From: Candidatus Hydrogenedentota bacterium
GTDB taxonomy: Bacteria > Hydrogenedentota > Hydrogenedentia > Hydrogenedentales > CAITNO01
Reading direction: 5' to 3'
Assembly (NCBI GenBank): GCA_012730105.1
Contig: JAAYBJ010000278.1
Coordinates: 444-64,443 of the forward strand
Length of the DNA stretch: 64,000 nucleotides
Made by a program: the position numbers and the translations under genes. Under the pieces are notes generated by a model. It was not told where the DNA came from, made no database searches, and worked only from the letters and a program-made list of their open reading frames with translations. Positions 1,822 through 54,813 of the stretch are shown here, piece by piece; the first letter of the stretch is position 1; each line of letters starts with the position of its first letter.

Positions 1822-2189
1822 ATCCCTGCTCCTTATCGGTTGCGGTCGTTTGCCGGGCGAAGCCTGTAAAAACTTATCATCCTGTGGATTTCCATGGTCT
1901 GCATAGGCTCGTTTCCAAGTTTTACTTGGGAACGCAATTTTTCGCGAAGTTCCACTTCGCATCCGCGGATTTTCATGGCCAGTATATCACGTATTCCCCT
2001 GAATTTGTCCGAAAGCGCTTGCCGACAGGATTTTGCAACAGCCACTTCTATTGGCGTATAACTACTCCATCTTAAAAGTGGATGTTTGCCGGGACGGAGG
2101 AGTACCCGTTCCCCGAAATGTGTGTGTTGTTAACAAGGGCCGTGCCCGGGCTGAGTTTAGCCGCGGGACATAACCGGGAGGATGTACCC

Positions 2190-3626
2190 ATGACGAGCTA
2201 CCTGGGTGTGGATGCGCAGTTTACTCTGGCTGCAAGTGTCGCGTTTTCTGGCGTGTTTGCCTTGGGAGTCATTTTCTCCATTCTGGGCAGTGTGAAACTC
2301 AAGCTTGCCGAGGCGCTCAAAATAGATGATGCCAAGGTCGGCAAGCTTATTTCCGCGCTGATGTTCAGCTGCATGATTGCCCTGCTGTTCATAGGCCCGT
2401 TGACGGATGCGCTGGGCTACAAGGTGATTGCGCTGACGGGCTTTGCTTTGGGCGCGGTTTGCGTCTGGATGCTGGCTGGCGCCCGTTCCTTCGGCGCGGC
2501 CTTGTTCGCATGCCTGCTGATGGGCATCGCCGCAATGTGCGTGAACGTGGTGGGCAATGATCTGGGCGTAAAGGTGTTGTTCGGCGGGGGTAACGCCGCG
2601 CGGGCCAGTAATTTGCTGAATGTGTTTTTCGGATTGGGCGCGCTCATCACGCCCCTTATCCTGGCCTACCTGCTCGCATTTTTGGGCTATAAGAAGACGG
2701 TGGGACTAATCGGCGTAATTCTGTTTATCCCTATCGTTTATGCGTCTTTTACCGCGTTTCCGCAGCCTGCCTCCGGATTTGAGTTCAGCCAGGTTCTGGG
2801 CTTGCTTTCGAATACCGCAGCATTAATGAGCGGTCTCACCCTGTTCTTCTACATCGCCCTGGAATCCACCATGGCGGGGTTTGTTTCCACCTACCTGAAA
2901 GAACATAAATTCGCGGACAAGACGGCGAATACCCTGCTCAGTGCGTTTTGGATCAGCCTGATGGCCGCCCGGTTGACTACCGCCATTTTCTTCTCCGGAC
3001 AAGTGGACCCGGCCATGCTCGTGCCCATCCTTGGCATATTGGTGGTTATTGGCATCGGCATTATGGTCATGGCCTCTTCTCCCGCCATGGGCGTGGTTGG
3101 CACCCTGGTAACGGGTTTCGCGCTGGGCCCGATTTTCCCGACCCTGGTAGGCGTGGCCTATTTAAAGACAGATGCCATGAACGCAGGCACGGGGGCATCC
3201 ATGTTCAGTCTGATTTTTGCCATCGGCCTGCTTGGCGGTACCCTTGTTCCGCCGCTTATCGGTTCTTATGCGGCAAAGAGCACCCTGCAGAAAGGGTTGA
3301 ATATCGCATTGGTGGTTGCCGTGGCCCTGGTCGTGGCGAGCTGTGTGTTGTGGCTGGCTATCCCGCCGGTTCAGGCGGCACCTGCGCCGGTGTCCGCCGA
3401 AGTGGAAACGCAGGATGTGGTTATTGAACCACCGGTGGTTGAAATCGAAGAAGCGATGCCGGTAGGCGCTCCGCCGGCCGTGACGGAAACGGTCTCCGAA
3501 TCGGAAGCCGCGCTGGTGCCCGAAGCACCTGCCGTGCCCGAAGCACCCGCTGCGCCTGCCGCGCCCGAAGCGCCTGCCGCGCCCGAAGCGCCCGCTGCGC
3601 CCCCTGCCGAGGGAACACAACCATAA
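2190..3626 (+). CDS. MFS transporter (FucP/glucose-galactose-like), with Pro/Ala-rich C-terminal tail
   Basis: About 12 hydrophobic helices. LGSVKLKLAEALKIDDAKVGKLISALMF resembles the FucP family. GGGAGG RBS lies upstream of ATG 2190. The C-terminus carries APEAPAAP tandem repeats. Confidence 0.7.
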   Translation: MTSYLGVDAQFTLAASVAFSGVFALGVIFSILGSVKLKLAEALKIDDAKVGKLISALMFSCMIALLFIGPLTDALGYKVIALTGFALGAVCVWMLAGARSFGAALFACLLMGIAAMCVNVVGNDLGVKVLFGGGNAARASNLLNVFFGLGALITPLILAYLLAFLGYKKTVGLIGVILFIPIVYASFTAFPQPASGFEFSQVLGLLSNTAALMSGLTLFFYIALESTMAGFVSTYLKEHKFADKTANTLLSAFWISLMAARLTTAIFFSGQVDPAMLVPILGILVVIGIGIMVMASSPAMGVVGTLVTGFALGPIFPTLVGVAYLKTDAMNAGTGASMFSLIFAIGLLGGTLVPPLIGSYAAKSTLQKGLNIALVVAVALVVASCVLWLAIPPVQAAPAPVSAEVETQDVVIEPPVVEIEEAMPVGAPPAVTETVSESEAALVPEAPAVPEAPAAPAAPEAPAAPEAPAAPPAEGTQP

Positions 3627-53409: not shown

Positions 53410-54444
53410 ATGTCTTGGGAACCTGTTGTGATTTGCGGCGCTTTAAGCCTGATGGGATTGCCTTCAAACTGGCAGGGCGCCGTGCCGGAAGTTTCCAATA
53501 TCTACGGCGCCGCAAATCGATTGTTTGACCGCTACGATGTAATCCTGGCGCCGGACACCATCGCACCGGGTTGGTGGGCGGGCGCCCCTTCCGTGCTGCG
53601 CGACAAGGAAGGCGTTTTCTGGCTGGCCTGCAGGATGCGCACCGCCGAGGGACCCCGCGGGTTGCGAGGTTACGAACTTAGAATCCTGCGCAGCGAGGAT
53701 GGAATTGATTTTGAAACCGTGCACCGAATACGCCGCGAAGAGGTGCCGATACCCGGGTTTGAACGTCCCGCGTTGTTGACCGACCCCGAAACGGGCCGGT
53801 TTAAACTCTATGCCTGTGGTCCCTGGCAGGGCGGCCCCTGGTCCATTATCAAGTTTGACGATGCCGACAACCCGGACTTGTTTCGCCCTGAAACCGCCCG
53901 GGTCGTCATAGGTCCCATGGCCAAGACCCACGAGTTTGACGTGCCCCCGGACGAGTATAAGGATCCGGTGATCATCCACGCGAACGGCGCTTATCACTGT
54001 TATGTCATTGGCGTGGTGCGCCGGACGGAACGGGTGTTCCACTTTACCAGCGCCGACGGGGCAGTCTGGCAGCCCGTGGGCAATCCTTACGAACCAATTC
54101 TAAACCTGCAGGACTGGCATAACTTTTATGTGCGTCCGGCCAGTGTTTTGCCCGTGGGCGTGGGGTACCTCTTTATTTACGAAGGCTCCAAGGTCAGTTG
54201 GTACGAGCCCGTGTATAACATTATGACGGGAATAGGCTTTACGTTTGACCTGCATACTATCATTGATCTGACGCCGGCATCACCGCTTGTCAAGAGCGCC
54301 ACGCCCAGCGCGACCCATCATACCTGGCGTTACTCGCATTGGATGTATGTGGAAGATGAAATCTGGATCTATGCCGAAGTGGCCACGCCCGAAGGCACCC
54401 ATGAAATACGGCGTTTCACGATTCCTGTTAAGAAATGGCTGTGA
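53410..54444 (+). CDS. Hypothetical protein (possible beta-propeller glycosidase-like fold)
   Basis: 344-aa ORF with good coding character. No recognisable motif by eye. Confidence 0.4.
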   Translation: MSWEPVVICGALSLMGLPSNWQGAVPEVSNIYGAANRLFDRYDVILAPDTIAPGWWAGAPSVLRDKEGVFWLACRMRTAEGPRGLRGYELRILRSEDGIDFETVHRIRREEVPIPGFERPALLTDPETGRFKLYACGPWQGGPWSIIKFDDADNPDLFRPETARVVIGPMAKTHEFDVPPDEYKDPVIIHANGAYHCYVIGVVRRTERVFHFTSADGAVWQPVGNPYEPILNLQDWHNFYVRPASVLPVGVGYLFIYEGSKVSWYEPVYNIMTGIGFTFDLHTIIDLTPASPLVKSATPSATHHTWRYSHWMYVEDEIWIYAEVATPEGTHEIRRFTIPVKKWL

Positions 54445-54530
54445 GGAGGGTTGCTTGGAAATTTGTGAAGTTCCGGGGACTGCTCTGAAAATTTAACTGA
54501 CGGGCTGCAAATAAACCTGATGTAATTACT

Positions 54531-54620
54531 GAATGTAGAAGCGGCGTTCCCGCCGCTTTCAATGCGCCAAGAATGCGGCGTCGATATTTTCATTGTTTAT
54601 GGGGGAGGCATAGCCTCATG
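54531..54620 (+). repeat. Structured ~90-bp intergenic repeat element, copy 1 (copy 2 at 63115..63204)
   Basis: gaatgtagaaGCGGCGttccCGCCGCtttcaa ... ggggaggcatagcctcatg. About 85% identical to copy 2. Both copies lie just after stop codons of plus-strand genes. Confidence 0.7.
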
Positions 54621-54730
54621 AATGGCTGTCTCTTTTTTCCGGGCTTGTGCGCACGAGGATAATGACTCGAGGTTCGTACTCTTGCCCCTGTTGCACTTTT
54701 TCGATTATGAGTGCGAGATGTGAGCACGCG

Positions 54731-54790
54731 TTATGAGCACGAATACTATGGGGCGTTGGATTGCGGGCAAGGCCCGCGTTGGTCTAGTAA
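54731..54790 (+). promoter_or_regulatory. Conserved leader motif with GCGGGCAAGGCCCGC palindrome, copy 1 (other copies 61611..61667 and 61795..61836)
   Basis: ttatgagcacgaatactatggggcgttggattgcgggcaaggcccgcgttggtctagtaa. Lies 24 bp upstream of ATG 54814. Confidence 0.55.
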
Positions 54791-54813
54791 AACTTGTTAA
54801 GAAAGGGATATGC

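Follow-up and report, generated by a model that had tools for sequence, protein, structure and literature searches.

Two copies of a 91 nt direct repeat are present in the window (the whole 64 kb stretch of DNA analysed here), and both are very probably relics of a non-autonomous REP-doublet (REPIN-like) element of the GTAG-tagged REP superfamily. This REP-type reading is supported by the anatomy of the element, by a hairpin family with a covarying stem, by the association of the element with RAYT loci, by an empty orthologous site and by the unrelated contexts in which the copies are found. By analogy with known systems, the 91-base repeats are probably selfish DNA that a dedicated transposase (RAYT) copies around genomes.

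The two copies align without gaps at 86% identity. An earlier note on this DNA, made from the sequence alone, had described a two-copy repeat of about 85% identity, and our alignment agrees with this apart from a start that lies one base further upstream, giving 91 nt.

54530–54620, plus strand: copy 1, 91 nt common core (86% identity to copy 2; nhmmer E 9e-31)
63114–63204, plus strand: copy 2, 91 nt common core (86% identity to copy 1; nhmmer E about 1e-30)

Searches of the 64 kb with nhmmer using the whole element and each of its halves, in which the known copies each score E about 1e-30, yield no third copy. The exact blocks TGAATGTAGAAGCGGCGT and GGGGAGGCATAGCCTCATG each occur twice in the window, while shuffled sequences give a chance expectation of about 0.02–0.04 matches with up to three mismatches tolerated. 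The 91 nt represent only the common core, since the homology of copy 2 to its relatives continues to about 63275–63285.

The first ∼55 nt of each copy consist of a GTAG tag, an 8 bp stem closed by a 4 nt loop, a 4 nt spacer (TCAA) and a second, inverted REP unit. In both copies GTAG lies directly 5' of a short G+C-rich palindrome, the arrangement by which the GTAG-tagged REP superfamily is recognized (PMC3733652). The stem AAGCGGCG/CGCCGCTT is perfect in both, as the earlier note had recognized, and the loops indeed differ (TTCC in copy 1 and TCCT in copy 2). The parts of the two copies are as follows.

54535–54558, plus strand: copy 1 REP unit 1 (GTAG at 54535–54538, AAGCGGCG at 54539–54546, loop TTCC at 54547–54550, CGCCGCTT at 54551–54558)
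63119–63142, plus strand: copy 2 REP unit 1 (GTAG at 63119–63122, stem at 63123–63130, loop TCCT at 63131–63134, stem at 63135–63142)
54563–54585, minus strand: copy 1 inverted REP unit 2, TGCGCCAAGAATGCGGCGTCGAT, decayed (tag CTAC changed to CGAT and five of eight stem pairs kept, from the alignment)
63147–63169, minus strand: copy 2 inverted REP unit 2, reading CCCTGCAAAGATGCCGCGTCTAC on the plus strand (two mismatches in 12 positions to the inverted consensus)
54586–54620, plus strand: copy 1 conserved 3' flank, ATTTTCATTGTTTATGGGGGAGGCATAGCCTCATG (small hairpin GAGGC at 54605–54609 and GCCTC at 54613–54617)
63170–63204, plus strand: copy 2 conserved 3' flank (small hairpin GAGGC at 63189–63193 and GCCTC at 63197–63201)
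63205–63285, plus strand: copy 2 extended tail, homologous only to the metagenome loci L079 and L045 and ending in a degenerate right terminal inverted repeat (TGCCATTCCGAGCATCACAC...)

On the minus strand, unit 2 of copy 2 reads GTAG-ACGCGGCA-TCTT-TGCAGGGT, with six of eight stem pairs formed and a stem of a second type, and it terminates in CTAC 27 nt past unit 1. It corresponds to the partial inverted repeat AATGTAGAAGCGGCG / CGCCGCGTCTACATT that had previously been seen in copy 2 and that reappears here as a minus-strand self-match in nhmmer. As unit 2 is near-intact in copy 2 but has decayed in copy 1, the former is a compact REP heterodimer and the latter an intact unit 1 followed by the relic of a unit 2. 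As copy 1 has lost its unit 2 and the copies are just 86% alike, those in the window may be immobile fossils.

The REP units are followed by a ∼35 nt flank, ATTTTCATYGTTTATRGGGGAGGCATAGCCTCATG, that is common to all copies, including the one adjacent to a RAYT gene. It contains the stem GAGGC-ATA-GCCTC followed by ATG, found at 54605–54617 and 63189–63201 just as first described. In the loci L153 and L154 this small hairpin reads GAGCC/GGCTC, a change of one compensatory pair. The covariation comes from five distinct sequences only and is equalled by 16 of 500 shuffles, and a strain SNP, G54613A (L005 and L017), disrupts the closing pair of the small hairpin of copy 1. The GAGGC/GCCTC hairpin may possibly have a structural role. 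In L079 and L045, which are fuller relatives, the GGGAGGC box of the flank belongs to an inner palindrome, of which it is the right arm; GGGGAGGC pairs there with GCCTCCCY beyond the REP doublet. The left arm of this palindrome, GCCTCCCT...GTAAT...GAAT, precedes unit 1 in L079 and L045; copy 1 keeps part of it (GATGTAATTACTGAAT) and copy 2 is truncated there, 24 nt past a stop codon.

The hairpin of unit 1 belongs to a large family. A scan of JGI metagenomes with the pattern GTAGAAGCGGCG-N3-6-CGCCGCTT returned at least 148 sites at at least 120 loci from very diverse samples; the matches listed do not include the window organism's own JGI contigs. An inverted partner lies downstream in 71 of the 148 sites listed, where CTAC ends a median of 38 nt past the end of unit 1, and upstream in only 21. 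Among these matches, unit 1 is typically separated by a short spacer from an inverted second unit that has CTAC at its end. The search pattern left the 5' arm of the partner units free, and compensatory change is abundant there. The stem variants comprise AAGCGGCG/CGCCGCTT, ACGCGGCG/CGCCGCGT, AAGCGGCA/TGCCGCTT, AAGACGCA/TGCGTCTT, ACGCGCCG/CGGCGCGT and AAGAGCCG/CGGCTCTT. A covariation analysis, which the earlier note had proposed as a check on the element, was applied to this stem: in 45 aligned units all seven tested pairs show changes on both sides and 94% of cells pair, none of 500 shuffles attains the observed values, and pairing drops to 26–47% in all slid registers. Across these units neither the GT[AG]G tag nor the TC[CT] loop changes. 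The sequence 3' of the stem is unconserved across the family among the matches listed. One feature of the family counts against the doublet reading: at RAYT loci with exactly the AAGCGGCG stem type the flanking REPs are in direct and not in inverted orientation.

The protein that recurs most often among the loci listed is a ∼190-amino-acid Y1/HUH transposase, encoded directly between GTAG hairpins and found by ORF clustering at eight or nine loci. It matches Pfam Y1_Tnp with 32 bits (cut-off 23). Its best NCBIfam match is the REP-associated tyrosine transposase with 66.5 bits, which lies below the cut-off of 80, and IS200 scores 20.9. There are 4234 homologues at E ≤ 1e-20, among which the JGI name 'REP element-mobilizing transposase RayT' is widespread, and their NCBI hosts include Kiritimatiellae, Pirellulales, Verrucomicrobiota, Planctomycetes and Candidatus Hydrogenedentes (two). 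GTAG-tagged REPs, REP dimers and their association with RAYTs are established, the PVC superphylum included (PMC3733652, PMC6006769).

Within the Hydrogenedentes, locus L151 carries two RAYT genes, each between GTAGACGCGGCG... doublets, and at L153, L154 and L155 (RAYT P0209) ACGAGGCTGGAAGCCTCGTCTAC is found on either side of the gene. L154 and L155 also contain an intact REP, GTAGACGCGGCA-TCCC-TGCCGCGT, that shares its type with unit 2 of copy 2 (position 8049 in L154), and L153 contains a REP of the GTAGACGCGGCA/TGCCGCGT type with a mutated tag and one stem mismatch. All three loci contain a near full-length copy of the 91 nt element (HMM positions 6–90, E 9e-15) located 110–190 nt upstream of the RAYT start; the match takes in the flank GTTTTCATCGTTTATGGGGGAGCCATAAGGCTCATGAATAGCGG, and in L153 it lies on the strand opposite to the RAYT gene. 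It is therefore the element itself, and not merely the hairpin, that is tied to a RAYT locus in the same phylum. No RAYT gene was found in the 64 kb window.

On the model of the RAYT/REP systems (PMC3116915, PMC6006769), the RAYT, a single-copy HUH/Y1 transposase, would recognize the GTAG-tagged hairpin on single-stranded DNA, cleave and rejoin the hairpin DNA in trans and so copy REP units within the genome. The window copies would then be passive insertions in intergenic DNA, and any effect on neighbouring genes, such as shielding the 3' end of an upstream mRNA, would be secondary.

At several metagenome loci outside the window, REP–RAYT–REP cassettes lie in frame, without a stop codon, inside ORFs for DNA methyltransferases (826–1350 amino acids).

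L028, 6691–9171, minus strand: ORF with in-frame RAYT cassette
L046, 2368–4791, minus strand: ORF with in-frame RAYT cassette
L043, 290–4342, plus strand: ORF with in-frame RAYT cassette
L082, 349–4227, minus strand: ORF with in-frame RAYT cassette

Pfam N6_N4_Mtase and Y1_Tnp are both found within a single ORF. To either side of the RAYT domain the REP hairpin is read as the peptide VEAASRRF; a second REP type gives TQDASST. Two different methyltransferase backbones are involved. REP insertions in frame within ORFs are already known (PMC3733652); for in-frame RAYT cassettes no published description was found. These cassettes in methyltransferase genes are the most unusual thing that we met, and they lie outside the window.

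Both copies in the window are extragenic, between called genes. Copy 1 begins 86 nt past the stop codon of a gene for a 344-amino-acid protein without a Pfam match (53410–54444, plus strand) and is followed by a metallophosphoesterase gene (54814–56418, plus strand). Copy 2 begins 24 nt past the stop codon of a DUF1080 / 3-keto-disaccharide hydrolase gene (61858–63090, plus strand), the product of which has a signal-peptide-like N-terminus, and is followed by a convergent PIN-domain gene (63354–63758, minus strand). The description of each copy as lying downstream of a secreted-enzyme gene thus suits copy 2, while copy 1 follows the 344-residue protein that has no Pfam match.

The window sequence is also contained in the ENA contig ERZ773285 NODE_218 (117.6 kb), and the organism recurs in JGI, NCBI and Logan assemblies, one of which is an anaerobic-digester metagenome from pulp mills (PMC11556013). 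The 344-amino-acid protein is identical to an NCBI protein from a Candidatus Hydrogenedentes MAG. In three related species (79–82% protein identity) the gap between the orthologues of this gene and of the metallophosphoesterase gene measures 59, 76 and 97 nt, compared with 369 nt in the window. Copy 1, to which this empty-site comparison applies, therefore sits in ∼300 nt of lineage-specific DNA.

54499–54795 (approximate), plus strand: lineage-specific extra DNA around copy 1 (boundaries drawn by eye; includes the unrelated repeat at 54722–54783)

The 91 nt element was not found in about 90 kb of the loci of these three relatives. A lone REP variant, GTAGAAGCGGCA-TCC-TGCCGCTT, with a stem that differs by a compensated pair, follows a lipase gene in one of them.

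Homologues of copy 2 over 165 nt with 81–84% identity are present in L079 and L045, both from Ga0123335, a JGI metagenome whose number belongs to the series of another in which the window organism occurs. The genes on their flanks bear no relation to those in the window. The L079 copy adjoins a GT2 glycosyltransferase gene, which it follows. In L045 a divergent glycine-zipper gene lies on one side of the copy and the trailer end of a CRISPR array on the other, and the copy is oriented opposite to the nearest gene. The CRISPR locus itself (L045 3790–6200) comprises cas1, an ORF in the cas2 position and an array of at least 13 repeats of GTCGCGCCCCGCGCGGGGCGCGTGGATTGAAAC with spacers of 33–35 nt; the element abuts its trailer end. 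The earlier note had also raised a scenario in which only two copies exist and arose through a local segmental duplication with coding flanks. This does not agree with the homologues in other contexts, and a segmental duplication that includes coding sequence is rejected in view of the unrelated flanks of the two copies.

A strain variant from an NCBI digester metagenome (L005) is identical to the window until 47 nt past copy 2 and then wholly divergent (window ∼63251 onward versus 11395–11831 of L005). Its called genes include neither the PIN gene nor the antitoxin-like gene upstream of it, and the contig ends about 440 nt past the point of divergence. The position of the breakpoint inside the extended tail of the element suggests a rearrangement at the repeat. 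Logan short-read contigs from seven runs (L007–L013) stop at 63139–63146, inside the REP units of copy 2, and another (L021) stops at 54581, inside a REP unit of copy 1. Such ends fit k-mers that are repeated elsewhere in the samples, with low coverage of the hairpins as the alternative, and are suggestive only.

The conserved 3' flank and the 29 nt terminal inverted repeats that enclose a unit of ∼315 nt in L079 and L045 are atypical of textbook REPINs. The mobile unit may accordingly be larger, with outer 29 nt inverted repeats, an inner GCCTCCCY...RGGGAGGC palindrome, a central REP heterodimer and a second conserved hairpin with a compensatory change. That such a nested palindrome of up to ∼315 nt constitutes a distinct, larger RAYT-dependent class in the Hydrogenedentes, or that the flank was exapted as an RNA 3'-end module, we consider unlikely. 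What confidence the REP-doublet reading leaves over is shared mainly between a MITE with a REP doublet inside it and an exapted RNA role.

In the former case the element would be a MITE with terminal inverted repeats at the ends of its roughly 315 nt, mobilized by an ordinary DDE transposase, with the REP doublet in its centre by chance and the window copies truncated or decayed. The region 12480–12794 of L079 is indeed bounded by the 29 nt inverted repeats ATGAATTCCGGGGACATGTCCGAATGGCA and TGCCATTCGAACATGTCCCCCAAATTCAT, which pair in the predicted fold (z = −5.8 versus shuffles), L045 has the same ends in degenerate form and the right end of copy 2 is a degenerate right repeat. However, these ends are known from two copies only (L079 and L045), inspection of the ends in L079 shows no target-site duplication, and a search of about 640 kb of retrieved loci turned up neither a matching transposase nor further copies. 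Moreover, the part that is common to all copies, including the RAYT-adjacent one, is the REP doublet with its short flank and not the terminal repeats, which are absent or degenerate in the window copies. A MITE of this kind is decidedly unlikely. A candidate left terminal repeat of copy 1 (54468–54494) was rejected in view of similar native intergenic sequence in the orthologue L148.

Of the three options offered in the earlier note, the REP/MITE-like element is the one retained; a terminator or 3' UTR module is disfavoured by the missing U-run and a small RNA by the lack of an Rfam match. In the 3' UTR reading, a hairpin with an exapted function would end or stabilize the upstream transcripts. 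The location of both copies downstream of co-oriented genes, 24 and 86 nt past their stop codons, and the stable G+C-rich hairpin that is predicted agree with this, and REPs of E. coli can stabilize upstream mRNA. Yet the stem is followed by TTTCAA without a U-run, so that it is not a canonical terminator, and the terminator scan makes no call. The sequence 3' of the stem is not kept across the REP family, the L045 copy follows a CRISPR array and not a gene and is oriented opposite to the nearest gene, in L153 the element precedes the RAYT gene and is on the opposite strand, and the orthologous genes in related species lack the element. A conserved 3' UTR or terminator module is hence very unlikely, and the hairpin may, by analogy with the E. 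coli REPs, have a secondary effect on upstream mRNA.

That the element is a small RNA gene of its own, or a leader containing a translated micro-ORF, is barely credible: although about 165 nt are conserved among three genomes, copy 2 folds better than shuffles (z = −3.2 on the plus strand and −5.6 on the minus strand), the small hairpin has its one compensatory pair and GGGGAGG lies 9 nt before ATG, the fold of copy 1 is ordinary (z = −1.7, and −0.25 for a longer region), no promoter-like site is found at either copy and promoter and terminator scans show nothing consistent at both, the strain SNP breaks the small hairpin, the covariation of which 16 of 500 shuffles reach with five distinct sequences, and no Rfam 15 family matches the element at gathering or permissive thresholds. 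Only two tRNAs in the window pass, and the best Rfam score on the element, mir-5595 with 24 bits against a gathering score of 100, is due to chance. The micro-ORFs of 14 and 21 codons noted previously do exist, but their coding conservation is a separate matter: the peptides MNGCLFFPGLCARG and MVNCTAFASVHYDLRLANVLS differ (MNGCLFF... versus MVNCTAF...), the reading frame is displaced between copies by a 2 nt indel, as seen against L079 and L045, and GGGGAGGC, which had been taken as a Shine–Dalgarno-like box, pairs in the palindrome. With neither peptide nor frame conserved, we reject the micro-ORF reading.

The REP-doublet element can be compared with E. coli BIMEs, Pseudomonas REPINs and the GTAG families of Opitutus terrae and Rhodopirellula baltica (PMC3733652, PMC3116915, PMC6006769). 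Like GTAG REPs and REPINs, it is extragenic and has a 5' GTAG tag followed by a G+C-rich stem-loop of 6–9 bp, and like Y/Z heterodimers it has two inverted units of different stem type. Compensatory changes in the stem, RAYTs flanked by the same hairpins and empty orthologous sites are further features shared with GTAG REP/RAYT systems. In contrast to known REPINs, the spacer in the window is very short (4 nt), the doublet is accompanied by a ∼35 nt conserved flank with a small hairpin of its own, the fullest relatives are ∼315 nt long with 29 nt terminal inverted repeats, and the host phylum is the Hydrogenedentes. PATEs and the ends of IS200/IS605 elements resemble it in having hairpins that are recognized by a Y1/HUH transposase, and in several metagenome loci the RAYT gene lies, as in IS200/IS605, between two identical hairpins in direct orientation. 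The units in the window are inverted, however, and the transposase favours the REP-associated NCBIfam family (66.5 versus 20.9 bits for IS200). ERIC/IRU and Correia/NEMIS elements are likewise small, non-coding, intergenic and imperfectly palindromic, with terminal inverted repeats (here in L079) and possible sites in 3' UTRs, but they are unrelated in sequence and have neither a GTAG-tagged REP core nor a linkage to RAYTs. In this comparison, no target duplication is seen for the family of the window element.

As text, the stem AAGCGGCG/CGCCGCTT was not found in the survey of GTAG repeats and its supplements (PMC3733652) or in the wider literature search, Hydrogenedentes papers aside, and a literature search for the exact REP sequence gave unrelated primer matches only. 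Among GTDB species representatives the 3' block GGGGAGGCATAGCCTCATG has just three chance matches (Plantactinospora and an archaeon), and two scans of viral contigs gave zero matches. Even if the stem itself is undescribed, its kind (GTAG REPs, REP dimers and RAYTs) is well described and no new mechanism is implied. The RAYT/REP system is extended to the uncultured phylum Candidatus Hydrogenedentes, which is common in anaerobic digesters, and a concrete REP sequence and doublet architecture are supplied for this lineage. The repeats break short-read assemblies, mark sites of rearrangement at the strain level and, through their Shine–Dalgarno-like and ATG features, are open to being misread as regulatory RNAs or small genes.

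A second, unrelated repeat family is found in the window, in the intergenic DNA ahead of the metallophosphoesterase gene and of the DUF1080 gene.

54722–54783 and 61604–61665, also 61797–61832: 62 nt repeat with the hairpin motif TTGCGGGCAAKGCCCGCGTTRGT at its end, 77% identity
61473–61521 and 61683–61731: 49 nt direct repeat pair, 90% identity

An exact match to the TTGCGGGCAAKGCCCGCGTTRGT pattern lies 30–50 nt ahead of the start codon of each of these two genes, and the motif is found only in the window organism's own loci. The repeat may represent either an element of the 5' UTR or a further mobile repeat. A match to the Rfam family 'Plastid-psbl-rps4 3UTR' (55.5 bits, gathering score 68) at 57585–57638 on the minus strand is antisense to tRNA-Ser (57550–57641) and is a by-product of this tRNA. 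Finally, an array with a 9/18 nt periodicity (GCCCGAAGCRCCYGCYGCGCC) at 3500–3601 falls within an ORF of 514 amino acids (2082–3626) and presumably encodes a low-complexity protein segment rich in Pro, Ala and Glu.
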